DNA of 60,646 nt, taken from a virus. Taxonomy: Duplodnaviria; Caudoviricetes. The notes beneath the pieces are model-generated. The model was given only the letters and a program-made list of their open reading frames with translations. It ran no database searches and had not been told where the DNA came from. A program made the translations under genes and the position numbers. Positions 5,001 through 50,038 of this stretch are shown here, piece by piece; the stretch's first letter is position 1, and each line of letters opens with the position of its first letter. Location of the stretch: the IMG/VR virus record IMGVR_UViG_3300042563_003046, positions 1-60,646 of that record. One strand, given 5' to 3'.

Positions 5001-8000
5001 AGCGTTTAACTGGGGTGCTCATATCACCACGGAAGATGTTAAGCCATCCTTTCTGCGCTTTGTATGCCCCGTATTCAAACATGGGCATCTCGAGGAGTTC
5101 TACAACTGCTGAGAAGTCGATGTTCGAAAGATCGGAAGATGCGCTAGAGCTCTGCCCAAAACTCGTAAAGAGTTTAAATGGAACGCCCGCCTCGAAAGCG
5201 CGATCATTGTGTTCGTCTTTGATCTCTTGCAATTCCTCTGGTGTAATATTCTCATCTTTAGTAGCCGCTCGATATGACTTCATAATCACATCAATATCTT
5301 CGATCCTAGCTGTTCTGACCGCTGGAGAAAACATCCGAGTAACATAATTTTTTAGGTCTTTACTACCATTTTGTGTATCAAATGTAACATCCAAACTTTG
5401 GCCATAGCGCCTCCATAGGTTAGCTGCCCTATTACCTTTTGGGTTTACATGAATCGCATGGTATAAATCTAGCTTGCCATCTGGCGTAGTCGCCGCATCT
5501 ACAAATTCATTCAGCTCGCTTGCAATTTGAATCTTAGATTGTTCTATGAAGTTAACTGAATGCTCATTAAGTTTCCTTTTTAGGTCGTTAGATAAACGCT
5601 GTCCTTGAGCGCTATTCAGGATTTTGTCCTGTAACCAACTAATCTGATCTTCTATGTCTATTTGAGCTCTTCTGATTTTTCTATCTAGCGCTGATCCTTT
5701 TGTGAAATCATCTAACTTGTTAGCTCGAGCCATTTGAAATCCCATAGATGGCCATGTGTAGTAACCATTCATCGACTCATTTAATTTTATACCATATTTA
5801 GATTGGTCTGTTCCTGTGGGGAATAACAATGCTACTACGTCTGATATAGACCGATCAATATTTAGGGAATCAAGATATCCAATTTTAAAAGATCTCTTAA
5901 GGAAGTTAGACCCATCGCCGCCACCCAAGGTCTCAATGCCTAACGCTTTAATGGCGCTATTGTTTGAAACAAGGGCGTTCATTAGTGTTGCAGCAAATGG
6001 AATTTTGGCCGCTTCTTGTGTAGTCCCGCCATCTCGACCCAACCAACCAACATGGATGCTGTTCTCGTTCTTAATATCTAAATCGACTGATACCACAGCT
6101 GTTTGTTTGTTAGCTACCCATGGGTTGTTATTCACCTTTTCATATGCGCTAACTTCGTATCTATCTTTACCTACTGAGACTACCTTGAATTGGAATAATC
6201 TATCTCCATACTCAATTCTCAGCGCCTTAATAGTATCTTCCAGCGCCTGTCTATCTATGTTCTCGATTACTTTAGTTTCAGTAGGATTCAACGCACTGAG
6301 GATTGCTTCTATGTCTAAGTTTGTTGACTCCATGTCGGGATCAAAACTCAGGGGTAACCCATCGACTACTAAGTCAGGGGGCGTTTCAAGATCAGTTCCC
6401 CCACCAAGGAGCGCCATTGGCGCCGTCATAGAACCATTAGCTCTGGCAGCTGCTTCTTCAGCGATAACACTATCTGGTGTATTCTCCGCGTAGTCATATC
6501 TGAATGTTACGGGGATCGGTGTGCTAGGATCCAATCCTAAGCTCTTCATTTTTTCAACGAGAATAATAGCTGCTATAATCGCTTCCGCCTTTACATTATC
6601 TATTTGCCCATCAGTAGTATAAGGCACTAGATCAAACGTAGAACTATCTGGGTCATAGGTTGATAGTAACTCTACTGCTTGAACTTCTTGCACTGGTCGG
6701 CTCGTTAATGATAATACTAGTCTATCAAATTCCTCTAGCTCGTCTACTATGGTATCATAATAAGCGTCGCCATCGTCCGCGAAATATAGATTGAGCGCCT
6801 GATCAATACTCCTGTTTAACCCGAGCGTGTTTTCTAGATCCTGTAGTGATAGCGTATATGATACTGAGAATAATTCTGGCCTATCTGGAGGGGCTGTCCA
6901 CCTTGCTGCAGGTGAACTAGGTGTGCTGCTAGCCGTAAAGTCAAGATCACCTTGGACGGGGGTAGTAGGCGCCTTATTAGTCGGTGCTACCGCAGCAGCC
7001 TCATCATCTACAATCTGGTTACCATTGATGACTCGAAGTCCTGCTTGTTGCATAAGTCCAGCAAACGTAGTTAGCGGTAATCCTGATGTCGCCAGTGCTG
7101 CCATTCTATCTTGTGCTTCGTATAATGCATCTGTCTCATCGAGGATGTTATAGTTTAAGATGCGGTTATATTCTGCGATTGCTTCAGCTGGAGAATTTGT
7201 ATCCAGCGCTCTGTAAGCATTCGTTTTTGCAAAACCCATGTTGATGGCTTGCATCTCTTGCATCATGGCAAAGACAGCAGCATCCATAGCGCCAGAACCC
7301 ATACCGAGTTTCTTACGATTGAGATAGCTGTTGAGCGCCCCACCGATGTATCTCTTTAATATGCGCAGCAGAGAGGGCTTGCTCGTCCAAAAGGCTATGT
7401 CATCCTCGGTGGTGTAACCACGAGTTACTTGTTGTAAGCGCATACGCAGCTTCTCTTCTACAAGAACACGCTGCTGTTGGCGGACGACTGTAGGATCGCT
7501 AGATGCGAGTTTAGCTAAAACGTCTGCAACATTCTGCGGGTTATTAATGTGGTAGGCTCTAGCAATTTCTTCATAAGCTGAATTAGATAAGCTATCCACA
7601 ATGATATCTACCTCACCTTGTGTAAGAGACCCAAATGATGCGTGGTGACCGAGTTCTTCGTTAAGAATAGAATCAAGAATAGAACGTTGGGCTAGTGGGT
7701 CTAGCTCATACATCTGGGACATTAAGATCGCAGGATTAATCCTGATCACATCGCCCTCTGCCTCAGCAGCGCCCTCAATAGTTTCGTCTCTGATTACCCG
7801 AGTGCCCGCAGGTATACGTGTATTCAGCCATCGCATTAATTGCACGAACTGAGCTTTCTGTTTTTCTGTTGGTAGCTTTTTGCTACCTGATGCTATTGTC
7901 TCCTCTATGCTGGCCTCTGTTTTATCGCGGTCAGCTTGATCCGAAGCGGTTGTTTCAGTGTCAGCTGCTGTCGCCGCCTCTGTCGTTTCTGTAGCTACTG

Positions 8001-11000
8001 GAGCTGCTGTATCAATAGTGGGCGCAGCAGTAGAAGTAGAGAGACGAGGTGTGTTGGTGACCTCAGCCAGATCATTAGCAGCACGAGTTACATCTGATGC
8101 TACCCGCATACTAAATGGAACTGCAGTAGCACGAATCGTCGTCTTGGATAAGTCTACGATATCCTTGAGCGCTTGGGCGTAAGCTGTGTTCTCTTTAGCT
8201 GATACCTTGCGGAACAACGATACCATCGCTTCGATGATGCGCTGGAAGAAACCACGCTGTCCTTCTTGGACTGGTAGCGTCTTTATGAATTGTTGGAATG
8301 TTGGGTCGAGCAAAAAGTTTGCTACGAACTCGTCTATATTCTCGAGACCAGTTTCTAGCGATGCATTATATCCATCTTCGCCTTGCTCGGTCTTTTGTTG
8401 GGCGTATGCTTTTTGGGCGAGCTGGTAAAGACCCTCGAGTCGTAAGCGAGCTGATCGTTGTTTATCAGACAATAGCTCAAGCGGTTGTGTCATGGTATCC
8501 GATAGGAATGCATGAACATATTCTTCGAGCAATACGTTCTCAAGACCAAGGCCGTTACCCTGCTCGGTGTTTAGGAATACGCTGTGGTTACCGTCTACGT
8601 GACGCGCATACTCACCAGCGATTGGTGTTTGACTAGATCCAATAGAGAACTTAACTCGGCGGATAAACGCTGGGTCTTCGAGTAGGAGCTCTGCTACTAA
8701 TTTATGCGCTGGGTTATTGCTACTCTTAGAAATTTCAGTAAGCGCTTTGACTACTGACTCTGGATCTCCTGATGCTAAACCTAGGCGAGCAATGTCTGCA
8801 GCATTTTGCTGGCGGAAGAGTCCTTTGTTTGCATTGTTTACAACGGCACGAGAAAATCGTGTGCGGACTGCCCTATCAATTGTCTTAATAATATTAGATG
8901 CCCTTCCTTTTGTGGCCGCTTCTCCGAATGTAGGCGCTAATAAGCGCTGGACTTCAGCAATATACGCTGGGTCTTCAAGTGGGTTACCATCAATGCGACC
9001 CGCAATAGCAGATAACTTGAGCGCATTCTTTAACTGCATCCCAGCGGGAGCGCCACCCCGTTCAAGATCTTGAATAAACGAGAGCACATCAGGGCGGTTG
9101 GCGTGGTTACCTAACGACATCCAGTCACCAATTCTAGCCATCAAGTCACGCGAACTCAGACCTCTTACGTGGGCTGCCGTGCCACCATCGGGATTAGGAT
9201 ATACTGAAGTATATGCTAATTCTTCGAGGCTATCACGGAGGTCGGTATCATTATCAATGGCATCAACTGCCTCAGTAATCGTATCTTTTATAGTGAGGTG
9301 GAATGCTTGCTCTGAGATAGCAAAATTAGGATTAGCTCCACCGAGACTGATCGAAGAATTTTTCAACTGCTCAGCATCGATGTTATCGATCATGCTGTTA
9401 GCTTGGTCTTCAAAGGCCACATCAGGGTCTTGAAGGACTCCTGTTGGTCTGCTCTCATCAAGAGATACCATAGCTCGAGTGCGCTCATTTACTTTGCGAA
9501 CTATCTGTTGTTCGTAGTAGCGATCTGCTGTCCGTCTGAGGACAGTAATAAAAGAGGGCATAAACCCGCCAGTTAAGTCCTTATTGTTTATGACTCGTTC
9601 ATTGATGAACTGAAGAACAATACTTGTATTAGTAGCCGACTTGTTAGGCCGTTTGGAAAGCAGGGGTGACAGAACTTTTGCCATGCCCTCGACGTCGAGA
9701 TTTCCTTTGAGCCTTGATTGCAACGCTTTGATTGCACCATTCTGTTTCTTTGGTAAGAGAGTTACGTTGTTGCTGCCAACCTCGGGTGTCGTCAGTTTAC
9801 CACTCGACAATATATCTACGCGCAACTCGTGGAGATTGGCAAGCATTAAGAATTCTATCTTAGCCGCTGTAACTGCATTGTCTTTAAAGTCTTCATCAAG
9901 GTCTCCTCTATTGATCGCGGTTGAACTTAGGAGAGCATCAACTGCTTCAGCATTCCCAGTAAAAGCGCCAACATTATACATGAGCTCGCCCATAGTTGTG
10001 GCTAGGCCTTCTCCATAGCCCGTGCGCTGGTTTACTGACTTAGTGCCCGTTGGCATGGGTTTAGCCTCTACTCCCTCAGGATAAAAAGGTATTCTGGAAT
10101 ATGCTTCATAGAGAGAATTATCCGCACTAATATCAGTGGTTTCAGTAATACGTGTCACAGCAGACTCCATAGATTTACCATCCAAAGAAGGCTTTCTGAC
10201 ATCAACGACATAGTTATTCTTAATAACAAAACTCTTATTGATCGTATTGCGGTCAACCGAAGGTTTAATAAATACAGGGATGCCATGTGCTAACATCTCC
10301 GTTACCACAATAGGGTCGTTATTAAAAATTCCACGGTCTTGGCGGTCGAGCGGCATTTTAATTGTGCCCTTTACAGTTTCATTTTTAATTGGGTCAAAGT
10401 AAGTAGAAACCCGAGATGCATTTTGTGTATAAGCTACTTCGCCCTCGCCAATCTTAAATGCTGGATAGAAAGCGTAAACTAGACGAGCAAGATATTCTGA
10501 CTTAGACACGAGATTTTTAGCTGTCACAGTGCCATACTTAAGAGCATTACCAAAGCGAAGTGGGAATCCTTTGAGGGCTAGCTTTGAAACCGCATCTGCT
10601 TCTGCTTCTTCCTGCGGGGTAAGTTCATCACCATTGCGAAATGGCGTAGTATCAAAACTTGATAACGGCGTATCCGTTGGGAGTGCCTGAGTTATAGGGG
10701 CTGTTGTTTCCTTTTTACTTTTGCTCTTATTCTTTTTGCGTCGTTGCTTTCTCGAGGACTCATCTACATCTGCATCAGGATCAAAGCTCGCTACATGTGA
10801 AGCTGTGTTGCTCGCGGCTTCATCCGTATCAATCTCTGCAACTGCTGCTGCTTTTTGAGCGGCTGGTGATGGCTGTGAGATAATCGTGATCGGCTCTTGA
10901 GAGAAAGTTGAGCTGATAGTGGTCGAACCTATGGTGGCAACAAGTGGAACCTCTTGGTTGTTCTCTAACTGTGCTACTGCATTGCTGATAATTTGATCCG

Positions 11001-14000
11001 CCTGTTCTTGTGGGGTTTCCGAAATGCGCACAAACAACTCATTAACATCCGTGATATCAGAAGGTTGTTCCAGCGAAGGTGTTTCTGAGGGAACTACTGG
11101 CGGTGTAAAAGCAGGGGTTGCTACTGGCGCAACAGGTTTAGGTAAAGCCCGTGGGACTTTAGCGTTACCCGTTTCCTTGATGTATCCAATTTCTTTCTTG
11201 GCTTTTTCAATTTTTGCATTCGCTTTTTTACCAATTGCTTTTCTCCCAACAAGTGGGACTGATAGAGAAGTAATTAAACTTTCACGCTCAGCAATTGCCG
11301 CTTCGGCCTCTGGGGTCAGCGTGATGGGAGCTACTGGTATTACTTCAACAGGAGTGGCTTCGATAGGAGTTGTTGGCTGACTCGTATCGTATCCAAATTG
11401 CTGGCTTGCTCCAACTGGCGCCCCCTCAATAGGGGTTGTAGCCGCAGGAGTTGTATCCGCAGGAGTTGTATCCGCAGTATCTGCGGGGATTGTAGCCGCA
11501 GTATCCGCAGGAGTCGTAGCTGCAGTCACCGCAGGAGTTGTAGCCGCAGGAGTCGTAGCTGCCGTCACCGCAGGAGTTGTAGCCGCAGGAGTTGTAGCCG
11601 CAGGAGCTAGTGTAGAAATAGGCGCTCGGCGGGCACGTGCTTGCTGGGTCAGGATTCTTCCTACTGCTTGTGCCGTAATTGGGCTACCCGAATCATTTAG
11701 ACGCTGAGTGACATCTGAAATAAACTTCTGTTGTAAACTGATGCCCTCTTGTAATACAGCTGCCTGATTCTTAAATGGATTGACTTTGTTCCATGCCCCT
11801 TTTGTGAGTGTGATTCCACCACCTAAGGTAGCTCCCATGGCCGCTGCATACATCGTTTGTTTTAAGCGCTCCAAGAATGGGGTATCCTGATCACTAGCTG
11901 CATCCTCAACAAAACTGTTAAGGAGCTGATCTAGCCCTTCTTCCTGCGCTTCGTCTACGGCATCTTTTAGGAATCCAGTCTTCGAAGATTTCTCGAGCTT
12001 TTTAATAGTAGCTGATAACTGCTTAGTAACTGCTTCTTTAAATTTAGTATCACTTAAGTTTTTGACGTTGGCTAACGAGCCTAAAAGATTTTTGGATTGC
12101 TTAAATGTTAAGCCACGTAGCATTGCGTCTTCTACACCCGCTTTACCAAATGAACCAAAGGCTGCGGTAATAACGCCAGTAACCATTCCACTAGTTAGTG
12201 CAGCTCCGAGAGATCGGTCGTGGATTTGTTCGTCAGTGAGCCCTAGCTCTTGCTGTTTCTTCTTAAGCGCTAGCGAGACGCTACCATATGTGCTAGCCCC
12301 AGTGCGAGTAGCAGCTGGAATAAAGGATGCGGCAGAAGTCCCAATACGTTGTGCTACGAGGCTGTTGTATCCCTTGATGGCTGCAAGCGCTCCTTCTCCT
12401 GTTACTTTTTTTACAGACTCTTTGATTAGCCCATCAGCAAGGATTCTCTTCGCAGCTGTCTCAGCTGTCTCTTTGGCGCCGATTCTAAAAGCTCCTTTTG
12501 TCAAGCCTTTCATCATGCCCTTCATGGTGAGCCGAGCTCCTTGTTTTGCTGCTAAGTATGCGACCCCACCCATTCCAGCTACGGGAGCTGTAACGGTGCT
12601 TAGCAGAGCAGTAGCGGCCATATCTACTACGAGTGGTGCTAGCGACTCCGCAATATCTTGGCCAAAGCCCATTTTCTGCCCGAACATTTCGGCAACTTCG
12701 CGGCGATCAGAATTGTCCTGTGCTATGTCTCTCAACATTTCGGCAGACCAATCAGCGCCAGCTGCCGTTAATACTCCCAAGACAGGAGATCCGAATCCAG
12801 TGAGAATGGACATTCCGAGTCCTTTAGTTCTCTCAGTAAAATTACTATAGTTTTCCTCATCTTTTAGGAAGTCGTTGAGGATCTCATGGTTCGCTTTGCC
12901 CTTAAGGCGGCCGTCAATTTTTGCCAGATTCCACTTATCCTCGCTGCCTGTGCGCTGAAATACTTTATCAGCGTTATTGTAATTATCTGTAAGGGCTACT
13001 AAGCGCTCGCCTTCAAGTTTTTTTCTATCGTTACCTGTGATGTCTGGCCGAGCTTCCAGTGTTTTGTTGAACAAATTTTCGTTCATCAGCGCTGCTGGGT
13101 GCATAACAGTTGTGCCCAAAGAGGTCTTGCGAATATTTTTTTGATATTCACCCTCTTCATCATGTAGCACAAATTTGCTATTTTGCGATGCATTAGAAAT
13201 AGCGACCTCTTTAATCAGTCTATCTACATCCTCTGGATTTAGCGACCCTTTTTCAAACGCCCCAGAATCCTCAAGTTTCTTAGTGATCGTGTCCCTAAAG
13301 TATGATATGTCGCGATCAACTTGGCTATCGATCTCTTTCTTAGCATTATAGTCGGCATCTACTTTTTTAGATGCTTCATCAGAAAATAGTCCTATTACTT
13401 TGGATACTCCAAGTCCTAGTGCTTCGCCAAATTCATTTGCTAAATATGATCCTTTATCCCCACCATCAAACTCTTGAAAGGCTGCTCGGTTTCCGAGTGC
13501 CTCTATGGTTGACTTAACTGACTTATCAGTTTTTGCCAGAGTAGACAGGGACTCATACATTTCAGAGATCTGATTAATTTTGTATCGAGCTACAGTTGAG
13601 CCTTCTGCAATTGCCAATTCACCTTGTGCTACATAAGCATCTGCTAAAGAAACACCTGCTGCGCGCGAGGCTTTGAGTGCCTCATTAAGGCTCATCGACG
13701 TAGCGAGGTCGCTAGTCTTGAACATGCGGTCTCCGTTGTCATCTTCGAAGACAGCAAAAGGAATCTTGTTCGTATCGATTGCTCGTGTCTTAGCCTCGTT
13801 GTATCTATTGAGGATAATATTATTAGCCGCTTCTTTGAGCTCGGCATGTCTGGCGAGGGACTCCTCTGTAAAGCCATTAGGGTTACCTGCTTTGATAGCT
13901 TTGTCCATCGAGCTAAATTTGCTCAATGCATCGCGATCTGGATCATCATAATTTAAGTTGGAAAGTGTCAGTGCAAACTTATCCTCGAAGGATGGCTCGA

Positions 14001-14313
14001 CAATATTTTTCTTGATGATGTCCTTAAATCCATCGTAGTCGCCGTCTTTTAATAGGTCTGCTGTTACTAACGAACCATAGAGGCCTTGCTGAATATTATT
14101 CTCGATCTCTACATCCATCGGCAGGTTAGAATCTAACCTTGTTTGACGCATGTAATCTGCATAATCAACTCGAAGTTGCACAGGATCTCGGTCTTCTTTA
14201 TCCAAAGACCAATCACCGAACGGTATGTATTGTGCCTCTGTAGGAGTTGTAGATTCAGTGGATCCAAGCAGACTTGTTGGAACGATAGTAGTAGTGGTGG
14301 TTGGGTCAGTCAT
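2077..14313 (-). CDS. Giant (4078 aa) polyvalent / internal virion (ejection) protein
   Basis: Very long ORF. It carries an Ala/Gly-rich hydrophobic N-terminal region, PAATT repeats, two zincin-like motifs (LLEEYVH, LNEELGH), an NGYYTWP motif and a helical C-terminal region. Confidence 0.75.
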   Translation of the reverse strand: MTDPTTTTTIVPTSLLGSTESTTPTEAQYIPFGDWSLDKEDRDPVQLRVDYADYMRQTRLDSNLPMDVEIENNIQQGLYGSLVTADLLKDGDYDGFKDIIKKNIVEPSFEDKFALTLSNLNYDDPDRDALSKFSSMDKAIKAGNPNGFTEESLARHAELKEAANNIILNRYNEAKTRAIDTNKIPFAVFEDDNGDRMFKTSDLATSMSLNEALKASRAAGVSLADAYVAQGELAIAEGSTVARYKINQISEMYESLSTLAKTDKSVKSTIEALGNRAAFQEFDGGDKGSYLANEFGEALGLGVSKVIGLFSDEASKKVDADYNAKKEIDSQVDRDISYFRDTITKKLEDSGAFEKGSLNPEDVDRLIKEVAISNASQNSKFVLHDEEGEYQKNIRKTSLGTTVMHPAALMNENLFNKTLEARPDITGNDRKKLEGERLVALTDNYNNADKVFQRTGSEDKWNLAKIDGRLKGKANHEILNDFLKDEENYSNFTERTKGLGMSILTGFGSPVLGVLTAAGADWSAEMLRDIAQDNSDRREVAEMFGQKMGFGQDIAESLAPLVVDMAATALLSTVTAPVAGMGGVAYLAAKQGARLTMKGMMKGLTKGAFRIGAKETAETAAKRILADGLIKESVKKVTGEGALAAIKGYNSLVAQRIGTSAASFIPAATRTGASTYGSVSLALKKKQQELGLTDEQIHDRSLGAALTSGMVTGVITAAFGSFGKAGVEDAMLRGLTFKQSKNLLGSLANVKNLSDTKFKEAVTKQLSATIKKLEKSSKTGFLKDAVDEAQEEGLDQLLNSFVEDAASDQDTPFLERLKQTMYAAAMGATLGGGITLTKGAWNKVNPFKNQAAVLQEGISLQQKFISDVTQRLNDSGSPITAQAVGRILTQQARARRAPISTLAPAATTPAATTPAVTAATTPAATTPAVTAATTPADTAATIPADTADTTPADTTPAATTPIEGAPVGASQQFGYDTSQPTTPIEATPVEVIPVAPITLTPEAEAAIAERESLITSLSVPLVGRKAIGKKANAKIEKAKKEIGYIKETGNAKVPRALPKPVAPVATPAFTPPVVPSETPSLEQPSDITDVNELFVRISETPQEQADQIISNAVAQLENNQEVPLVATIGSTTISSTFSQEPITIISQPSPAAQKAAAVAEIDTDEAASNTASHVASFDPDADVDESSRKQRRKKNKSKSKKETTAPITQALPTDTPLSSFDTTPFRNGDELTPQEEAEADAVSKLALKGFPLRFGNALKYGTVTAKNLVSKSEYLARLVYAFYPAFKIGEGEVAYTQNASRVSTYFDPIKNETVKGTIKMPLDRQDRGIFNNDPIVVTEMLAHGIPVFIKPSVDRNTINKSFVIKNNYVVDVRKPSLDGKSMESAVTRITETTDISADNSLYEAYSRIPFYPEGVEAKPMPTGTKSVNQRTGYGEGLATTMGELMYNVGAFTGNAEAVDALLSSTAINRGDLDEDFKDNAVTAAKIEFLMLANLHELRVDILSSGKLTTPEVGSNNVTLLPKKQNGAIKALQSRLKGNLDVEGMAKVLSPLLSKRPNKSATNTSIVLQFINERVINNKDLTGGFMPSFITVLRRTADRYYEQQIVRKVNERTRAMVSLDESRPTGVLQDPDVAFEDQANSMIDNIDAEQLKNSSISLGGANPNFAISEQAFHLTIKDTITEAVDAIDNDTDLRDSLEELAYTSVYPNPDGGTAAHVRGLSSRDLMARIGDWMSLGNHANRPDVLSFIQDLERGGAPAGMQLKNALKLSAIAGRIDGNPLEDPAYIAEVQRLLAPTFGEAATKGRASNIIKTIDRAVRTRFSRAVVNNANKGLFRQQNAADIARLGLASGDPESVVKALTEISKSSNNPAHKLVAELLLEDPAFIRRVKFSIGSSQTPIAGEYARHVDGNHSVFLNTEQGNGLGLENVLLEEYVHAFLSDTMTQPLELLSDKQRSARLRLEGLYQLAQKAYAQQKTEQGEDGYNASLETGLENIDEFVANFLLDPTFQQFIKTLPVQEGQRGFFQRIIEAMVSLFRKVSAKENTAYAQALKDIVDLSKTTIRATAVPFSMRVASDVTRAANDLAEVTNTPRLSTSTAAPTIDTAAPVATETTEAATAADTETTASDQADRDKTEASIEETIASGSKKLPTEKQKAQFVQLMRWLNTRIPAGTRVIRDETIEGAAEAEGDVIRINPAILMSQMYELDPLAQRSILDSILNEELGHHASFGSLTQGEVDIIVDSLSNSAYEEIARAYHINNPQNVADVLAKLASSDPTVVRQQQRVLVEEKLRMRLQQVTRGYTTEDDIAFWTSKPSLLRILKRYIGGALNSYLNRKKLGMGSGAMDAAVFAMMQEMQAINMGFAKTNAYRALDTNSPAEAIAEYNRILNYNILDETDALYEAQDRMAALATSGLPLTTFAGLMQQAGLRVINGNQIVDDEAAAVAPTNKAPTTPVQGDLDFTASSTPSSPAARWTAPPDRPELFSVSYTLSLQDLENTLGLNRSIDQALNLYFADDGDAYYDTIVDELEEFDRLVLSLTSRPVQEVQAVELLSTYDPDSSTFDLVPYTTDGQIDNVKAEAIIAAIILVEKMKSLGLDPSTPIPVTFRYDYAENTPDSVIAEEAAARANGSMTAPMALLGGGTDLETPPDLVVDGLPLSFDPDMESTNLDIEAILSALNPTETKVIENIDRQALEDTIKALRIEYGDRLFQFKVVSVGKDRYEVSAYEKVNNNPWVANKQTAVVSVDLDIKNENSIHVGWLGRDGGTTQEAAKIPFAATLMNALVSNNSAIKALGIETLGGGDGSNFLKRSFKIGYLDSLNIDRSISDVVALLFPTGTDQSKYGIKLNESMNGYYTWPSMGFQMARANKLDDFTKGSALDRKIRRAQIDIEDQISWLQDKILNSAQGQRLSNDLKRKLNEHSVNFIEQSKIQIASELNEFVDAATTPDGKLDLYHAIHVNPKGNRAANLWRRYGQSLDVTFDTQNGSKDLKNYVTRMFSPAVRTARIEDIDVIMKSYRAATKDENITPEELQEIKDEHNDRAFEAGVPFKLFTSFGQSSSASSDLSNIDFSAVVELLEMPMFEYGAYKAQKGWLNIFRGDMSTPVKRLFEQREEFKRAASQLVISYKEKMDKLVINTYGDKASADWDLLAKAQGYIDGNLVSDAAYEAMEKAYNAELERIANDQTLTPADQRTQRAAARQQRDQDIEAAESSAIAQVTIERDAALNQLQSLNSDLAVHIVSMRTQLIQPIQQKLIAAGIDPNIGLKIDKTGGIYITRAYAMFNDPTYAERVRTEPHYQAVRDAAMSFFTTQLFNMSFSEAKAQGLSDIDATNAANLAIQKANQKAPAGSSYGSQAMEAFLSSYDQKQSPSPQTTKGLREIKNNLKRRKDLPKELRDLLGEYGAENGTDLIVRTFSSVAMVAAQQTFLNNLAKTGAKQGFMVDAKTYAANPSQYPDYVPMRSGGSTKNDPLAHMYAPKDIVDSLGAALEARVTQQSTTAEAAVSAISLVARNLTGKAMVAKTLGSVGFYLRNALGNLLFFAPAQGFIRADKIAIRTGVFSYMQLKDPNRINAAMAELTGLGIIGDEIQPAMLKALLSGAASKDSMLASLDKFTAELPVVGTVRKGMEWLENKASTLSGAIDAAYKIEYFQHELDTLIEARANDPSGKLTGMSDYDLKRMAAVKVKMTAQSASQAPDFVKALNNSTFGLMFAPFIRFKAEVPRIVFNTYKLGWEEVNSGNPVLVARGMKRLGGMTSMLGMVSAALPAVISALFGGVRDEEDEALRKSMPEYLRGHSFLFYRDSKNALISLDLTYVNPFSLLLDPFMRALPYIKNGEVGNAASALTKGLFFSTYLDDQILAGNLADVIENKDSTTNQNIYIEGVDGVFEAMTKQAAYVFKKTYTPRIVQDVMNSVNAMDGNYVGERNSPLAQLFDGMKPTKTHQIDLVAQHRRFLYDHAERFSQLKREKYAMLRKQAMSPEEIDEIYDREFKGRRSLNQELLGVVRGFESLGIKPQDQYNTMKSAGIGKEKARLLFQGIMDRPDIEKDFAEKLIENQQTDRLEQLIKVRDRYNRYIFIDEIKTK
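11432..11604 (-). repeat. Coding tandem repeat (PAATT/PADT linker)
   Basis: Repeated gccgcaggagttgta units within the giant ORF. Confidence 0.85.
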
Positions 14314-16196: not shown

Positions 16197-16302
16197 AGTG
16201 GTGCTGTAATAAATTTCGCTTACACTATTAAAAACTTTCTTTTAATTCTATTGGTGCTCTAATAAATTATTACAGCACCAATACGTCATATAGAAAGTTT
16301 TT
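16197..16302. repeat. 106-bp AT-rich element, inverted copy of 49916-50021
   Basis: Reverse-complement match with about 4 mismatches; contains three TGGTGCT(G/C)TAATAA boxes. Confidence 0.92.
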
Positions 16303-16331
16303 ATTCCCTACAAAGAGGAGCTGACCAAGAT

Positions 16332-20589: not shown

Positions 20590-21888
20590 ATGAAGACATT
20601 ATATCCAAAGCAACAAGAAGCGCACGACTTTTTTGTATCGTGCCTAACTAAGAACGTTAACACACTAGACTCATCAGATGTAGGAACAGGTAAGACAATT
20701 GTCGCCTGCCACATTGCGAAGACCTTGGGCAAACCATTCTTCGTCATGTGCCCTAAAGCGGTCATACCATCTTGGGAACGTGAAGCAGCAGCCTGTGGGC
20801 TTAAACCGCTGTTTGTCATGAACTACGAGAAACTACGAACTGGAAAAACTCCATGGCTAACAAAGCGTGGTAAGAAAATATTCAACTGGAAGTTACCAGA
20901 AGGAGCTATCGGGTTCATCGACGAGTGCCATAAAGCAGGAAACCCGTATACGCAGAATGCGCAGATGGTAATCGCTCTACACAAAGAAGATTTCCGTATT
21001 CACTTGATGTCAGCTACATCAGCTAATGATCCAACGGAGATGCGAGCAATCGGATACGCCTTAGGTTTGCATTCTCTCAATGAAGCGCAAGCGCCACTTA
21101 AAAGTTGGTATCGATGGATGATGGATTATGGCTGTGTGCAAAATACATGGGGTGCGTGGGAGCTGCGTAAGAAGAACAAGCTATCCCTTTTGCATGATCA
21201 AATTTATAACCGTAATGCGAAGAGGCTTACCGTAGCTGACTTCCCTGATTCATTTCGTAAGAATAGGATCTTTGTGGAGAACATTCAGTTTTCTAATCTC
21301 AGCAAGATTCACGCGGCATACAAGAGTCTTAATATTACACCAGAAATCATCGAGCGATACATTGAGCTAGGCACAGTAGAAGATAGCGAGCACACTCTCG
21401 TGAACCTGTTACGAGCTCGACAGTTGGCTGAGTCTTTTAAAGTAAATGATATTGCTGAAATGGTCGATGAGTTATTGTTAGAAGAGGCCAGCGTGGTTGT
21501 CTTCATGAACTTCCGTGAAACAGCAGAAGCATTAGCACTAACCCTAAGGTGCGAGAAGATCGTTGGTGGACAATCGGCAGCTGATAGACAGCGGATCATT
21601 GATGACTTCCAGTCGGATAAAACGCATGTGCTCGTTGTTAATATTGCAGCAGGTGGCACTGGCATTAGCTTGCACGATCTGAACGGTGATAGACCACGTG
21701 TATCTCTGATATGTCCTACGTTTAATGACAAGGACTACATGCAGGCACTCGGACGCATTCACCGCAACGGAGCAAAAAGTGATGCCGTGCAAAAGATTTT
21801 AGTTGCCAATGGGACGGTTGAGGAAGTAGTTATCAAATCCATCCAGAACAAGATCGCAAATCATGACATGCTCCATGGAACAAAATAA
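20590..21888 (+). CDS. Superfamily 2 (SNF2-like) helicase
   Basis: GTGKT, DECH, SAT, AGGTGISL, QALGRIHR. Confidence 0.92.
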   Translation: MKTLYPKQQEAHDFFVSCLTKNVNTLDSSDVGTGKTIVACHIAKTLGKPFFVMCPKAVIPSWEREAAACGLKPLFVMNYEKLRTGKTPWLTKRGKKIFNWKLPEGAIGFIDECHKAGNPYTQNAQMVIALHKEDFRIHLMSATSANDPTEMRAIGYALGLHSLNEAQAPLKSWYRWMMDYGCVQNTWGAWELRKKNKLSLLHDQIYNRNAKRLTVADFPDSFRKNRIFVENIQFSNLSKIHAAYKSLNITPEIIERYIELGTVEDSEHTLVNLLRARQLAESFKVNDIAEMVDELLLEEASVVVFMNFRETAEALALTLRCEKIVGGQSAADRQRIIDDFQSDKTHVLVVNIAAGGTGISLHDLNGDRPRVSLICPTFNDKDYMQALGRIHRNGAKSDAVQKILVANGTVEEVVIKSIQNKIANHDMLHGTK

Positions 21889-21892
21889 ATTT

Positions 21893-22198
21893 ATGAATAC
21901 AAAACAAACTAACCCGCTGGCAGCGGTTGCTCCAGCCACGCCTTGTTCGGCTGCTTGCCCTAAGTGTGGCAGTCTGAACATCCACCGCCATCATCGCGCC
22001 CCGAAAGAAGAGTGGTCGCGAAATATCGGGGAGAACCGCAAGAACTACGAAACGCCGTGGGTCAGCTATGTCGGATACTCCGCAAAAGCTCTCAAGGAGT
22101 GCATTACCCACCACTGCCGCTGCTGCCAGTGGAAATGGGAATCCGATTGTCTGCCGAACGATCAAAGTGAGGCACAGCCTCCAGCAACAAATCTATGA
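21893..22198 (+). CDS. Cassette A gene, zinc-ribbon protein
   Basis: CPKCGS...CRCC; stop inside attC1. Confidence 0.75.
   Translation: MNTKQTNPLAAVAPATPCSAACPKCGSLNIHRHHRAPKEEWSRNIGENRKNYETPWVSYVGYSAKALKECITHHCRCCQWKWESDCLPNDQSEAQPPATNL
21913..21951 (-). mobile_element. Truncated attC (R'' and L'' half only)
   Basis: Minus strand reads GCCGAAC AAGGC GTGGCTGGAGCAACCGC; no L'/R' arm is visible toward the helicase. Confidence 0.65.
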
Positions 22199-22250
22199 AT
22201 ACACCAAAAGACTCAACGGGAGGCTGTTGTCCTCCACCGCCTTGTTCGGC
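22153..22250 (-). mobile_element. attC site 1 (98 bp)
   Basis: Minus: GCCGAAC AAGGC GGTGGAGG ACAACAGCCTCC...GGAGGCTGTG CCTCACT TTGATC GTTCGGC. Confidence 0.9.
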
Positions 22251-22548
22251 TTCTTTGGAGGCCGTTCAATACGCCGACTACATCCTAAACCACTACTCGC
22301 GGGATAGTCACGCTGACAAGTTGTGCCTCGCCCGTGACTTGGAGCGGCACGGGTGGTCGAGTGACTTGTTCGGCGATTTGAGTGCGGATGCGAAACAAGC
22401 GGTCGCATGGCTGTTTAGTGACCATGCCAAAAAGCTCTCAGTCATCGAGGCTCGCGCCTGCATCTTGGAAGGATGGGGAAAGCGCGTGGACGACGAACTG
22501 CGAGCTTACTTTTCGCCAAACGCCAAGGTATCAGACCGCCCATCATGA
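22195..22548 (+). CDS. Cassette B gene, hypothetical protein
   Basis: ATG in the attC1 loop (ATGA overlap); stop in attC2. Confidence 0.75.
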   Translation: MNTPKDSTGGCCPPPPCSASLEAVQYADYILNHYSRDSHADKLCLARDLERHGWSSDLFGDLSADAKQAVAWLFSDHAKKLSVIEARACILEGWGKRVDDELRAYFSPNAKVSDRPS

Positions 22549-22605
22549 AAACTCCCGAATCACAACAGACGCCTTTGGGCGGTTCTGATCACCGCCTTGT
22601 TCGGC
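22515..22605 (-). mobile_element. attC site 2 (91 bp)
   Basis: Minus: GCCGAAC AAGGC GGTGATCAG AACCGCCCA...TGGGCGGT CTGATACC TTGGC GTTTGGC. Confidence 0.9.
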
Positions 22606-22850
22606 GTTGCGTGACACACCACTTCGCTTGCGACTGCCGCGAGGCACTGATGGCGGAATCCATGAAGACGCAACGACGAGTGATCGACTGGCGGGATCAG
22701 AGCGATGAGGGCTTGAGACTGCGTTGCGGAGAACTGACCACGCAGGAAATCCGCACCATCAGGGCTGTGCTGACTGCTATTCTTCCGCCGAACGCCGATG
22801 TGATGGCAGCCGCCGACAATAAAACTCCAACGAAGGAAATGACTTTATGA
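22545..22850 (+). CDS. Cassette C gene, hypothetical protein with CxxHHxACDCRE motif
   Basis: ATG in the attC2 loop; stop in attC3. Confidence 0.75.
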   Translation: MKTPESQQTPLGGSDHRLVRRCVTHHFACDCREALMAESMKTQRRVIDWRDQSDEGLRLRCGELTTQEIRTIRAVLTAILPPNADVMAAADNKTPTKEMTL

Positions 22851-22908
22851 TACCAGAAACCATTGAAGAAACCACAGATGGCGGATTGCCATGCACGCCT
22901 TGTTCTCC
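22787..22908 (-). mobile_element. attC site 3 (122 bp)
   Basis: Minus: GGAGAAC AAGGC GTGCATGGC AATCCGCC...GGCGGCT GCCATCAC ATCGGC GTTCGGC. Confidence 0.88.
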
Positions 22909-23212
22909 GTCTTTTCGGGCTGGAGATGATGTTCGCCACCTGCCATCTGGTGAAAACTGGAAGCTCGCCACGGATGAGGAAAACGGGTGGGTGTCTCCAT
23001 GCGGATGGCCGCCTACACTAGCCGAAGCGAAAGACTGTGTGTTGCAGTTCGCCGCCGACGATAATGAGAGGATGGAGATGCTGAAAACATGGGCAGCAGA
23101 GGGGCGCGGCTACGAGCATGAGCGCGACCACCGAACCCGCACCGCTCGCCACCAGATTTCTTCCGAGAACGCTGAGGTGAGGCACGGCGCTAAGGACGCT
23201 GACCTCGACTAG
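22847..23212 (+). CDS. Cassette D gene, hypothetical protein
   Basis: ATG in the attC3 loop; FRAGDDVRHLPSGENW...GWPP; TAG in the attC4 loop. Confidence 0.75.
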   Translation: MIPETIEETTDGGLPCTPCSPSFRAGDDVRHLPSGENWKLATDEENGWVSPCGWPPTLAEAKDCVLQFAADDNERMEMLKTWAAEGRGYEHERDHRTRTARHQISSENAEVRHGAKDADLD

Positions 23213-23249
23213 AAACTTTCCCGCCGTTGCCTCGACCGTCTTGTTAGCC
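23164..23249 (-). mobile_element. attC site 4 (86 bp)
   Basis: Minus: GGCTAAC AAGAC GGTCGAGGC AACGGCG...CGCCGT GCCTCACC TCAGC GTTCTCG. Confidence 0.9.
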
Positions 23250-23288
23250 GTTCGGGGTGCGTCGGAAAACCGAAACAAACACACGAAT

Positions 23289-23504
23289 ATGGACAACCTA
23301 CGAAAAAACATCGAATCAGCAATTAACGCCGCCAGTGCGGAAAACGGCAGTGACACTCCCGATTTCATCTTGGCCGAATATCTCACGGACTGTCTCACTG
23401 CATATGACAAAGCGGTGGTGGCGCGTGAAAAGTGGTATGGACGGCCAGAACTCCCAAAGCCATTTCCTTCGGCTAATAGCAAAGATCAATCACCGCAAGG
23501 TTGA
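23289..23504 (+). CDS. Cassette E gene, small conserved phage protein (ENGSDTPDFILAEYL type)
   Basis: ATG 23289 after an A/C-rich leader; stop in attC5. Confidence 0.75.
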   Translation: MDNLRKNIESAINAASAENGSDTPDFILAEYLTDCLTAYDKAVVAREKWYGRPELPKPFPSANSKDQSPQG

Positions 23505-23523
23505 TTGCATCGATCTGTTCGAT
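23471..23523 (-). mobile_element. attC site 5 (53 bp, minimal; R' reads ATT instead of GTT)
   Basis: Minus: ATCGAAC AGATC GATGCAATC AACCTTGCGGT GATTGATC TTTGCT ATTAGCC. Confidence 0.75.
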
Positions 23524-23529
23524 AAACGC

Positions 23530-23775
23530 TGACATGCCGTTTAGTATGTCACTACACTCGCGCTCATTGCATTGAGGGCATCTGAAACAGAATGAGGGGG
23601 AGCCGTACGCGGCGAACTCAATACGTCTGGATGAGCAACCTGAACAGTGGGTGCGAGTGTGGTGTGACTGAGATGGTTTAAGGTTGACGCAGATAGAGCG
23701 GGGATATGTTCTGCAACGTATCGCTGCCCGTAGATTCGTATTCTACCACCACACGACTTGCTGCCGTAAGCAGCT
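23530..23775 (+). ncRNA. Candidate structured non-coding RNA
   Basis: Intergenic; five stems, including a 19-bp stem (23551-23569 with 23645-23663) whose non-Watson-Crick pairs are all G-U on the plus strand. Confidence 0.5.
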
Positions 23776-23794
23776 ACTAACCAATAATAAAAAT

Positions 23795-24076
23795 ATGACA
23801 ACCTTAGAACAACAATTAGAAGACGCAGGATACGATGCATCCGAGCTATTATGCATGGATGGATATAACGACTGTATTGTCGGAGTTGTAAACCGCATAG
23901 GCCAACCACCAATCATATGCTATGATACTACCAAGGTTATAGCGTCATTAGTGAATGATGGTATGACCGAAGAAGAAGCTGAAGAGTATTTTAACTTTAA
24001 CCAATTAGGAGCTTGGATCGGCGAAAACACCCCTTGCTTTTTAACACCTTTAACATTAGAACAACCATTACAATGA
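23795..24076 (+). CDS. Conserved small phage protein
   Basis: DGYNDCIVGV...EEAEEYFNFNQLGAWIGENTP motif. Confidence 0.75.
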   Translation: MTTLEQQLEDAGYDASELLCMDGYNDCIVGVVNRIGQPPIICYDTTKVIASLVNDGMTEEEAEEYFNFNQLGAWIGENTPCFLTPLTLEQPLQ

Positions 24077-25197
24077 TAGACAACGTAAACCACGCAGACA
24101 GAGGACACGCAGAGTTCTCACCATCGAGCCTAAAGTATGTAGCGCAGTGCGCAGGATACCAAGGTAAAAGCGGAAATTCCGCAGCCTCAGAAATGGGCAC
24201 ACGAATCCACGAAGCCTTAGAGGTTAGAGACCCTTCTGCTTTGCACAATGAACAGGAAGTTGACATCTACAATCAGATCGTTGAAATGGAAGCTGAGTTC
24301 ATGACGAACTTTGGCACAATCACAGAAGAGCTCAATGAGATCCAAGTGAGCGTAGAATTGATTGGGACTGAAACATGGGGGACATGTGACCGTCTATTGA
24401 TCATTGGAGATGGCAGCGAAGCAGTGATGGCCGACTACAAAACTGGTATCTCAATTATTGATCCGCCAGATAAAAACTTCCAAGCAAAGGCATATACCAT
24501 TGGGGCTTTCCAAAAGTATCAAAAGTTGGAAAAGATCGTCTTCGTCTTCTATGTCCCTCAGCGCTACCAATCGTTGCACCATACGTTCTATCGGGCAGAC
24601 CTTCCTAGCCTAGTGCAGGAGCTAAGCACGATTGTTACGACAGCGGAGCGTGTTAGACCAAAATGGAACAAAGGCACGATGGATATCGATGATTGCACAC
24701 CGAGCCAATATTGCCACTTCTGCGCACATGAAGATGGCTGTCCTTCTCTAGGCGGGCTCAGCATCGCATTAGCCAAAAGAATCAACAGCACACTACCCGA
24801 CATCGATCTAACAGATCTTGAAAACACAGACCGCTTAGCCGAGCTCTACCACATCTCTAAGATCGTAGAGAACTGGGCTGCAGCAGTTAAAGAGAGAACT
24901 CTAGCCGCCCTAAAAAATGGTGAGTCGTTAGAGGGTCTCAAGCTAAGATCCATGGGTAAAACAAAATCGGTCACAGACAATATTACACTGATCGAAATTG
25001 CTAAAGAGTGCGGCGTTGAGATGGAAGATATCCTGAAAGAAGCAAATTTCCCACTCGGTAAAATGGCTAAAGTCGTAGCCTCTTTGGGTCATGGAAAAAC
25101 AAAAAAAGAAAAAGAAGAAAAATTTCTTGACGCCTGCCAAGATGCGGGTATTGTCACGTTCTCCGACGAGCGGTTCACAATCGCAAGTCTGACTTAA
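24073..25197 (+). CDS. Cas4-like PD-(D/E)XK exonuclease (DUF2800-like)
   Basis: HAEFSPSS, GTRIHE, WGTCD, DYKTG, CHFC...C cluster. Confidence 0.85.
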   Translation: MIDNVNHADRGHAEFSPSSLKYVAQCAGYQGKSGNSAASEMGTRIHEALEVRDPSALHNEQEVDIYNQIVEMEAEFMTNFGTITEELNEIQVSVELIGTETWGTCDRLLIIGDGSEAVMADYKTGISIIDPPDKNFQAKAYTIGAFQKYQKLEKIVFVFYVPQRYQSLHHTFYRADLPSLVQELSTIVTTAERVRPKWNKGTMDIDDCTPSQYCHFCAHEDGCPSLGGLSIALAKRINSTLPDIDLTDLENTDRLAELYHISKIVENWAAAVKERTLAALKNGESLEGLKLRSMGKTKSVTDNITLIEIAKECGVEMEDILKEANFPLGKMAKVVASLGHGKTKKEKEEKFLDACQDAGIVTFSDERFTIASLT

Positions 25198-49868: not shown

Positions 49869-50038
49869 CGATGTATTTACATCTCGTTGGTGCTGTAATA
49901 AATATATATTGAGAAAAAAACTTTCTATATGATGTATTGGTGCTGTAATAATTTATTAGAGCACCAATAGAATTAAAAGAAAGTTTTTAATAGTGTATAG
50001 GAAATTTATTACAGCACCACTTAAATGTAAATACATCG
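49869..50038. repeat. Nested palindromic AT-rich element containing the second 106-bp copy (49916-50021)
   Basis: cgatgtatttacat...atgtaaatacatcg outer arms; four TGGTGCT(G/C)TAATAA boxes. Confidence 0.9.

Follow-up and report, generated by a model that had tools for sequence, protein, structure and literature searches.

Frame-locked attC hairpins join the small genes of a phage island that is probably a CALIN

The genome of an uncultivated freshwater phage (IMG/VR record IMGVR_UViG_3300042563_003046, positions 1 to 60,646; this whole stretch of 60,646 nt is called the window below) contains a 1.9-kb island in which five small open reading frames (ORFs) follow one another across hairpins of the type at which integrons exchange gene cassettes. 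The hairpins are attC sites, and they are frame-locked: the crossover triplet is always read as an in-frame Asn codon, a lock that was found in other phage arrays and not in bacterial arrays of the same attC family. Protein tails beyond the Asn vary, the leader in front of each gene body follows that body, and a natural variant of the island lacks precisely one cassette. By every sequence test that was run the island is a cluster of attC sites lacking integrase (CALIN; Cury et al. 2016, PMC4889954), and in strand, ORF limits and codon phase it falls outside the definition of a canonical cassette. We consider it probable that the stretch is a CALIN of a phage-adapted kind, carried by a virulent phage.

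The island holds five small ORFs, four hairpins that join them, one half site and one degenerate fifth site, arranged as follows.

21881 to 23802, + strand: GC-rich island between the helicase gene and a phrog_13182-like gene, missing in the closest relatives
21893 to 22198, + strand: c1, 101 aa, containing CxxC pairs and belonging to no Pfam or PHROG family
22195 to 22548, + strand: c2, 117 aa, made of two fused cassette bodies: module A at about residues 20-55, module B at 58-109
22545 to 22850, + strand: c3, 101 aa, of a widespread family without known function (94 homologues)
22847 to 23212, + strand: c4, 121 aa, function not known
23289 to 23504, + strand: c5, 71 aa, matching phrog_18819 (unknown function), with its start 40 nt past attC4
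21886 to 21953, + strand: attC0, the 3' half of a site, with the c1 start in the loop, the 3' arm and R'' box GTTCGGC (21944-21950); the 3' end of the helicase gene replaces the 5' arm
22151 to 22252, + strand: attC1, with R' box GCCGAAC (22153-22159; Asn codon 22157-22159), inner stem ACAGCCTCC/GGAGGCTGT, stop/start overlap ATGA at 22195 in the loop, and R'' box GTTCGGC (22244-22250)
22159 to 22520, + strand: cassette 2, the mobile unit, from the C of the attC1 AAC to the AA of the attC2 AAC
22363 to 22374, + strand: residual R''-type box GACTTGTTCGGC inside c2, read DLFG, a remnant of a lost attC between modules A and B
22513 to 22607, + strand: attC2, with R' box GCCAAAC (22515-22521; Asn codon 22519-22521), inner stem ACCGCCCA/TGGGCGGT, ATGA overlap at 22545, and R'' box GTTCGGC (22599-22605)
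22785 to 22910, + strand: attC3, with R' box GCCGAAC (22787-22793; Asn codon 22791-22793), a long loop with the ATGA overlap at 22847, and R'' box GTTCTCC (22902-22908)
23165 to 23251, + strand: attC4, with R' box GAGAAC (Asn codon 23168-23170), the c4 stop TAG (23210-23212) in the loop, and R'' box GTTAGCC (23243-23249)
23471 to 23520, + strand: putative attC5, short and degenerate, with R'-like box GGCTAAT (23471-23477; Asn codon AAT 23475-23477), small hairpin ATCAATCACC/GGTTGATTG and the c5 stop (23502-23504)

The c1 gene may instead start at the ATG at 21875, which is the ancestral start of the downstream gene.

All five ORFs read the AAC or AAT of the R' box as Asn (LPND, SPNA, PPNA, SENA and SANS, from c1 to c5), and the GTT boxes in the window read PCS, PCS, LVR and PCS. 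A preliminary description of this DNA, made from the letters alone, had taken the constant frame at the first box and the varying frame at the second as the marks of a design, and argued that the constant frame exceeded chance. Both features recur in other phage loci. Counting was restricted to sites scoring at least 30 bits with the covariance model described below and having at least 150 nt upstream; the 83 such sites gave 75 clusters without near-duplicates, and 70 were evaluable after 5 clusters with fewer than 40 open codons upstream had been set aside. At 65 of these 70 non-redundant sites, from 27 other loci, the AAC was a codon of the longest upstream open frame (binomial P 1.6e-25 against an expectation of 1/3). 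The stop of that frame fell inside the attC at 61 of the 65 in-frame sites, an ATG lay within -10 to +12 of the stop at 58, and stop and start overlapped as ATGA at 38. The GTT box was read by the downstream ORF in each of the three frames at random (22, 21 and 28 of 71; RLVR, ALFG and PCSA). An in-frame ATG or GTG lay inside the attC for 57 of the 71 downstream ORFs, which agrees with the predicted placing of starts in attC sites. Bacterial control sites (n = 49) had no frame preference: the three frames of the top strand were found 12, 19 and 14 times at 45 evaluable sites, and among the 48 sites evaluable on the bottom strand, frame 0 came out best 8 times. Thus, the frame lock is specific to phage arrays and to the crossover box. 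Within the window, the proposal that stop and start codons sit inside the hairpins holds for the ATGA overlaps of attC1 to attC3 and for the c4 stop in attC4, and fails for the c5 start, which lies downstream of attC4.

These counts bear on the idea that the frame agreement is a product of chance or of spurious ORF calls in GC-rich DNA, the real genes being on the other strand as in bacteria. Strand discrimination is indeed moderate, since the phage bodies are free of stops on the coding strand in 49 of 58 intervals and on the top strand in 32 of 58. However, chance calls would not give 65 of 70 sites in frame next to an unbiased bacterial control, nor a c3 family of 94 homologues with near-invariant residues 56-80, nor ORFs that tile the island with ATGA overlaps, and the differences between module A of the window and that of another phage locus (L049) are mostly at third codon positions. 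We give this idea almost no credence.

The identity of the hairpins was established through a covariance model, R1, made from 37 related elements that include the window's four and comprising 15 pairs. Compensatory changes are present in 8 of the 15 consensus pairs, the outer 7 pairs are kept in 35-36 of the 37 elements, and one column of the 3' arm is unpaired in the consensus. In the window R1 scored 83.7 bits at 22151-22252, 65.7 at 22513-22607, 38.1 at 23165-23251 and 35.0 at 22785-22910, and it matched the 3' half site with 16.1 bits (21841-21953, E 0.011). A weak + strand match inside c2 (22388-22463, 11 bits, E 0.3) was taken as chance, and no match was obtained on either strand outside 21841-23251. 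The five sites counted in the preliminary description therefore become four full sites by the model, preceded by a 3' half, with the fifth (SANS, GGCTAAT) missed by it. This putative attC5 is backed by only one metagenome contig, with an unmatched part that ends in GCCGAAC just before the break at 23478, which supports a degenerate fifth site; its stretch folded with z of -1.9 and -1.2.

The two-box pattern occurred in 81 stretches of viral contigs, about 35 of which were long two-level hairpins with the same spacers and mid-stem, the rest being chance matches or a conserved start of a capsid gene. When 479 kb were scanned generically for AAC...GTT hairpins of any kind that have an inner stem, the 230 matches returned were too noisy to be of use. 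In 88 viral loci (50 without a convincing two-level hairpin in the pattern scan and 8 fetched by protein query) R1 gave 129 matches at E<0.01. Five array-bearing viral records that were scanned whole had 5-17 sites apiece, and within a record all sites point the same way; direct terminal repeats are present in two of these records. An exact 12-mer, GCCTTGTTCGGC, has three copies, all within the island.

The sites share an outer AAC/GTT stem of 7-8 bp, an internal loop of 5-7 nt, an inner stem that is bulged on its 3' arm, and a loop of 30-60 nt. The folds of attC1 and attC2 follow this plan, with an 8-bp outer stem, a 5-7 nt internal loop, 3'-arm bulges in the inner stem and a 33-36 nt loop, and compared with shuffles their two-level hairpins have z of -2.5 and -3.1 on the + strand and -2.1 and -2.6 on the - strand. 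Inner stems differ from junction to junction and are complementary inside each.

When a tighter pattern was run against bacterial contigs with one genome per species, it was found in 10 places, all 10 of them, by record title, in Planctomycetota, Verrucomicrobiota or, once, Acidobacteria (Gemmataceae, Zavarzinella formosa DSM 19928, Fimbriiglobus, Gemmatales, two Planctomycetaceae, three Verrucomicrobiota and one Acidobacteria metagenome-assembled genome). An integron integrase (TIGR02249) was above the cut-off in 4 of the 5 of these genomes tested (392-456 bits against 265; NCBIfam), and in two, G001 and G002, the arrays adjoin intI (54 matches in the R1 scan). In G002 a locus of 19.9 kb immediately downstream of intI contains 28 R1 sites, of which 25 lie on the same strand, and G001 has 24 that flank intI on both sides. 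These intI-linked arrays of the same sequence and structure family identify the island hairpins as attC sites, as the preliminary description had supposed, and place them in a PVC-type family. Two details of layout were also seen: G001 (L151, L152) has a run of eight attC sites only ~240 nt apart (L152 543-2903), and in G002 (L153) intI points toward the array and shares the direction of the cassette genes, as in a 'reverse integron'.

The bacterial arrays also orient the phage sites. Convincing bacterial cassette proteins (with lipoprotein and signal-peptide starts, or glycosyltransferase-like) lie on the strand opposite to the R1 strand. One G002 cassette has four copies whose identity extends, on the coding strand, from one GTTCGGC to the next and is lost directly beyond these boxes; this places the R' box (G/TTCGGC on the top strand) as the complement of the phage GCCGAA/C. 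The AAC box is therefore the R' crossover box and GTT the R'' box, in agreement with the assignment made from the window, so that the coding strand of the phage corresponds to the attC bottom strand. The bulged bases of an attC are assigned to its double-prime arm; in the phage sites the bulges are on the arm next to the GTT box, in agreement with this orientation.

These bacterial arrays also answer the suggestion that a family of paralogous phage genes carries the hairpins as structures that act in RNA (translational operators, processing sites or terminators), that these do no more than resemble attC sites, and that their common ends come from gene descent. In its favour, the hairpins lie on the mRNA strand, with stop and start codons inside them, and common N- and C-terminal peptide motifs are found among the ORFs. 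The bodies, however, are mutually unrelated, the GTT box is read in all three frames, the island is foreign by GC and missing in relatives, and the junctions have no Rfam match and no excess of terminators or promoters. That the same element family occurs in intI-linked bacterial arrays with genes on the other strand largely refutes this suggestion, and we regard it as very improbable.

Set against what defines the known classes, the island has paired inverted AAC/GTT core boxes at attC1-4 (GCCGAAC/GTTCGGC and variants) and, in the attC1 and attC2 folds, an inner stem past an unpaired spacer, bulges on one arm only and a variable loop. Same-orientation arrays with an integron integrase are found in the attC family (G001, G002) and not in the phage itself. 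Crossover inside the R' box (top strand G/TT, bottom strand AA/C) is seen in the four-copy G002 cassette, in the variant without cassette 2 and in a segment shared by two phage loci (L089 and L107), both described below. Four full sites lie within 1.1 kb, in a complete 60.6-kb record that lacks TIGR02249, as in a CALIN; a complete integron (intI, attI and Pc) is not present, since there is no intI and the genes on either side of the array belong to the phage, one encoding a helicase and the other of unknown function. Canonical cassettes are found in the bacterial arrays of this family, and the phage departs from them in its bottom-strand ORFs, loop starts and in-frame crossing.

Homologues of the encoded proteins indicate which part of each gene belongs to which cassette. 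The preliminary description had predicted that homology would stop at the Asn and that tails would vary, and this is seen for c3, c4 and module B of c2. In the c3 family residues 56-80 have a column consensus of 0.95-1.0, which drops to 0.74 at N83 and then to 0.20 at residue 84; the Asn is present in 64 of 95 rows, and these 64 have 58 different six-residue tails. Homologues of c4 end in SSEN or SLEN followed by one of five tails (A, S, NAISNSHAD, SLLTSTSAEYDAD or AEVRHGAKDADLD), and those of module B have a common ...YFSPN, after which they diverge fully, with five different tails past SPN. The module B query returned only two loci, L042 and L043. Identity between the window and L042 is 97.7% over 22357-22528, ending 7 nt past the AAC, and only 81% in module A. 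Among 37 full-body c3 homologues, leader identity climbs with body identity (0.23, 0.27, 0.33, 0.35, 0.61), whereas tail identity stays flat at 0.18-0.25. The leader, which comes from the cassette's own attC, thus travels with the body, and the tail is part of the cassette that follows, so that each attC brings its own start together with the stop and tail of the upstream gene, as had been proposed. Pfam and PHROGs gave nothing useful for c1-c4, the protein atlas no usable match for c3, and tblastn of c3 against 50,697 GenBank phage records no match.

L042 is an unrelated phage with a backbone of 41% GC and a GC-rich (55-60%) cassette island right after its structural genes (3904-4649), which indicates that the cassette pool keeps its own base composition across very different phages. 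Within that island, 3932-4450 has the form of a fusion intermediate, two bodies being linked via a stop-free half attC.

Natural variants were sought in contigs from four other lake or freshwater metagenome runs (X2-X5), compared over 21500-24100; stretches without contig cover were read only where a contig bridges them. In 3 of the 4 runs (X2, X4 and X5), contigs ~99% identical to the window join 22156 to 22519 and skip 362 nt (22157-22518). Four ambiguous letters, AACG, are common to both sides of the joint, the G/A difference between the R' boxes (GCCGAAC and GCCAAAC) places it 3' of 22518, and the loss corresponds to exactly C22159...A22520, that is, cassette 2. In the resulting form c1 reads ...LPN-AKVSDRPS-stop, continuing in frame into the attC2 tail and the ATGA of c3. 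Like the outcomes of the other checks that the preliminary description had set for itself, this favours its interpretation. Contigs of other organisms diverge from the window at 22157, 22159, 22519, 22794, 23166, 23168 and 23478, and a match between attC4 and another phage locus (L072) begins at 23167. The 393-bp segment common to L089 and L107 spans one AAC box to the next, and a 331-bp segment common to L095 and L104 is bounded by AAC boxes on both sides only in the coordinates of L104. Further loose contig ends lie on the GTT side, at 21952, 22250 and 22605.

One other difference among the runs has a separate origin:

23149 to 23745, + strand: 597-nt stretch with the c4 tail, attC4, c5 and non-coding DNA, bounded by CCACCA and missing from contigs of this phage in 4 of 4 runs

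The flanking 6-nt repeat indicates that this was not an attC event. In the short form (P0049) a truncated c4 is fused in frame to an N-terminally extended next gene.

It has to be asked, then, whether an integrase made the joints at all. The junctions could derive from attC sites and yet be rearranged by general recombination, of the phage or the host, or by replication slippage at the short conserved boxes GCCGAACG and CGCCTTGTTCGGC, in the manner of the stem-loop-bounded cassettes of T4-type phages, with the hairpins persisting as intercistronic coupling elements. Much that weighs against exchange by an integrase is what this explanation would expect. Neither an integron integrase (TIGR02249, searched across the complete 60.6-kb record) nor a tyrosine recombinase was matched in the phage, and no integrase exceeded the cut-off in the five other array-bearing viral records. 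Breaks occur at both boxes; the c4 leader is also found on unrelated bodies (P0050, P0051), L083 combines a different body with a site 92.5% identical to attC1, and a high-scoring segment pair between L104 and L111 ends 22 nt from a GTT box and not at an AAC box. The four common letters of the cassette-2 joint lie inside an 8-of-9 direct repeat, which would allow a microhomology deletion, and as a CCACCA microhomology indel is known in the same lineage, an integrase origin of that joint is not certain. Neither outer junction of the island coincides with an attC box: on the left it falls inside an attC loop, next to ...ATGGAA (the old overlap of helicase stop and next start), and on the right there is no attC, so the array probably did not enter through an attC x attC event. 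The RuvC-like and endonuclease VII-like resolvases of the phage could, moreover, cut extruded cruciforms.

Symmetric boxes would not, however, produce the asymmetry that is seen, with AAC locked and GTT random, tail unlinked and leader linked, whereas a single asymmetric crossover predicts it. Cassette-precise differences sit at the AAC box, yet identity there amounts to merely 4-8 nt. Similar attCs on unrelated bodies suggest exchange or re-association at the GTT box too, or homogenisation of attC sites; they are normal in chromosomal integrons, though they could also reflect exchange at the GTT box, and breaks at GTT are likewise expected if similar attCs attach to many bodies. On this balance we consider rearrangement without an integrase unlikely, and prefer a CALIN whose cassettes are exchanged by an integrase.

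Other points against this preferred reading concern the lock and the hairpins, besides the moderate strand discrimination noted above. Five of the 70 sites are out of frame, and the frame count comes from 27 loci whose same-array sites are not fully independent. The attC3, attC4 and site-0 stretches, folded alone, were no better than shuffles (z +0.38 to -0.62), and Shine-Dalgarno motifs at the loop starts are weak or lacking.

The arrangement suggests the following model. Read along the bottom strand, a cassette begins with the C of AA/C and continues through the 5' arm, loop, 3' arm, R'' GTT box and body to ...GCCGAA. Its loop holds the stop of the upstream neighbour and the start of the cassette itself, whilst the 3' arm and R'' box are read as an N-terminal leader in any frame. 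As each body ends in AA, the first two bases of the Asn codon, any pair of cassettes keeps the upstream frame; the upstream protein gains a short tail from the next attC and stops beside the next start or overlapping it, mostly as ATGA. A host IntI would swap such units between co-infecting or successive phages, and we infer that the integron integrase of a PVC-type host is what moves them. The fixed phase would be selected because only that frame terminates in the loop next to the start; in a consensus reading, one alternative frame often meets a TGA in the CTGAG of the 5' arm and the third passes over the start codon. Selection for termination-reinitiation coupling across the hairpin thus probably maintains the lock, and the loop starts are presumably used in translation. 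Cassette expression in bacterial arrays depends on translation of the upstream cassettes (Carvalho et al. 2024, PMC11511950), which, with the coupling described for an ORF that spans attI1 (PMC8876359), makes a benefit from coupling plausible.

Extended to the group, this model would have phages of Planctomycetota/Verrucomicrobiota-type hosts keep a pool of inverted cassettes of their own, exchanged by the host's integron integrase. Selection would have reshaped the attC into a recombination site that is at the same time a translational coupler, and the Asn-locked crossover would make cassettes behave like phase-compatible exons, any permutation giving an unbroken coupled operon in which each tail is set by the downstream neighbour. 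We find the case for this extended model evenly balanced. If it is true, the inverted orientation would also silence phage cassettes captured by a bacterial integron and bacterial cassettes captured by a phage.

The island is foreign to the phage that carries it. The record has direct terminal repeats and a completeness rating of 100%, and family and library scans identified genes for a terminase large subunit, family A DNA polymerase, primase, endolysin, endonuclease VII, RuvC-like resolvase and SNF2-type helicase; as the gene content includes no integron integrase, the phage is read as virulent. GC is 55-60% at 21900-23500 and 43-47% on either side. In the closest relatives (L002, L003 and L005, with helicases 90% identical) the phrog_13182-like gene comes straight after the helicase stop, and homology to the window ends at 21880 and restarts at ~23803; the ~1.9 kb between is therefore an insertion. 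In more distant relatives the gap between helicase and exonuclease genes ranges from 0 to 4.7 kb and is filled with unrelated genes (L001-L032), which makes this site an insertion hotspot of the phage group. The AAC of the helicase gene itself (21847-21849, QNK) was considered as the crossover of the insertion and ruled out, since homology to the relatives continues to 21880. Among the helicase relatives scanned, only the window has attC sites at this junction, and R1 gave just 2 matches in 100 helicase-relative loci (712 kb), both in L006; the array is therefore not a trait of this phage family, and R1 is specific. The L006 matches (helicase 66% identity; 1499-1582 and 2003-2064, 27 and 30 bits) lie upstream of a RuvC-like gene, a different locus from that of the window array.

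Blastn of the region against GenBank phages gave no match, and Rfam, which holds no attC family, had none within 21500-24100. A promoter and terminator scan found no excess, and no site inside the junctions. Between c5 and the next gene, the 290 nt at 23505-23794 contain no convincing ORF, no Rfam match and an inverted repeat (23550-23569 and 23645-23664; 20 nt, 80% complementary). Elsewhere in the phage a conserved 75-nt palindromic element (TAAAAAC ... TATTGGTGCT ... GTTTTTA) occurs twice, at 16229-16303 and 49915-49989, and at matching places in relatives (L001 640-714, L002 594-668 and L007 875-952); its possible roles include those of a bidirectional terminator, a promoter or an origin-type element. 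On the - strand, positions 2077-14313 form one ORF of 4078 aa, whose product may be a counterpart of the giant virion proteins of N4-like phages.

Integrons have been studied as bacterial devices, and an integron cassette is understood as a promoterless gene on the top strand with its own attC behind it. The phage arrays point to a second cassette design, apparently confined to phages, in which the attC precedes its gene and supplies a start, together with the stop and tail of the upstream gene, and in which crossover occurs at a fixed codon phase. This design would solve a known weakness of arrays, their dependence on upstream translation (PMC11511950). Lytic phages would gain a means of permuting very small accessory genes, anti-defence genes perhaps among them, and the plasticity of phage genomes would be linked to the integrases of their hosts. 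The arrays also offer a natural system for how cassettes and attC sites arise and stay in register.

Among known systems, the promoter-early stem-loop (PeSL) cassettes of T4-type phages are small ORFs between repeated promoter-bearing stem-loops in hyperplastic regions; they are thought to shuffle as modules and are not known to have an integron link. Both systems thus place small phage ORFs between repeated stem-loops, whereas the junctions described here have no promoter signal, are homologues of attC sites and are in-frame coding sequence.

CALINs have already been published in temperate and virulent phages (Qi et al. 2023, PMC9892861), and IntI1 recombined five of six phage attC sites. Those arrays, like the present ones, are attC clusters without an integrase in lytic phages; they have 2 or more sites, and their cassettes were called typical of bacterial arrays, whereas here up to 17 sites were found per record of uncultivated freshwater phages. 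The available sections of that paper make no mention of bottom-strand coding, attC-internal codons or a frame lock, and our literature search found no description of frame-locked codons in attC loops or of bottom-strand phage cassettes; supplementary tables of Qi et al. 2023, which lay outside the search, might list overlaps of ORFs and attC sites.

In the attI1 site, ORF-11/ORF-18 (Hanau-Bercot et al., via the review PMC8876359) is a short ORF across the crossover whose coupled translation drives the next gene. As in the phage arrays, the stop is supplied in phase by the inserted cassette; unlike them, attI1 is one fixed top-strand site before the first cassette, whereas here every attC x attC junction is of this kind and the upstream ORF is a full cassette gene. 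Fused cassettes of class 1 integrons (PMC4670013), in which partial or full loss of an attC joins two ORFs, are rare. The c2 gene of the window (modules A and B) and the L042 ORF with its half attC resemble them, with the difference that phage ORFs already read through the attC, so that fusion follows naturally. With integron arrays and CALINs in general (PMC4889954), the phage arrays have in common imperfect AAC/GTT hairpins with an unpaired spacer, bulges and a variable loop, a single orientation, single small genes between sites, no intI nearby in the phage, and the same attC family beside bacterial intI. They differ in having genes on the bottom strand, ORFs that run through the attC, a crossover inside a codon at a fixed phase, a start in the attC loop, an attC that precedes its gene, and bodies as short as ~100-200 nt.

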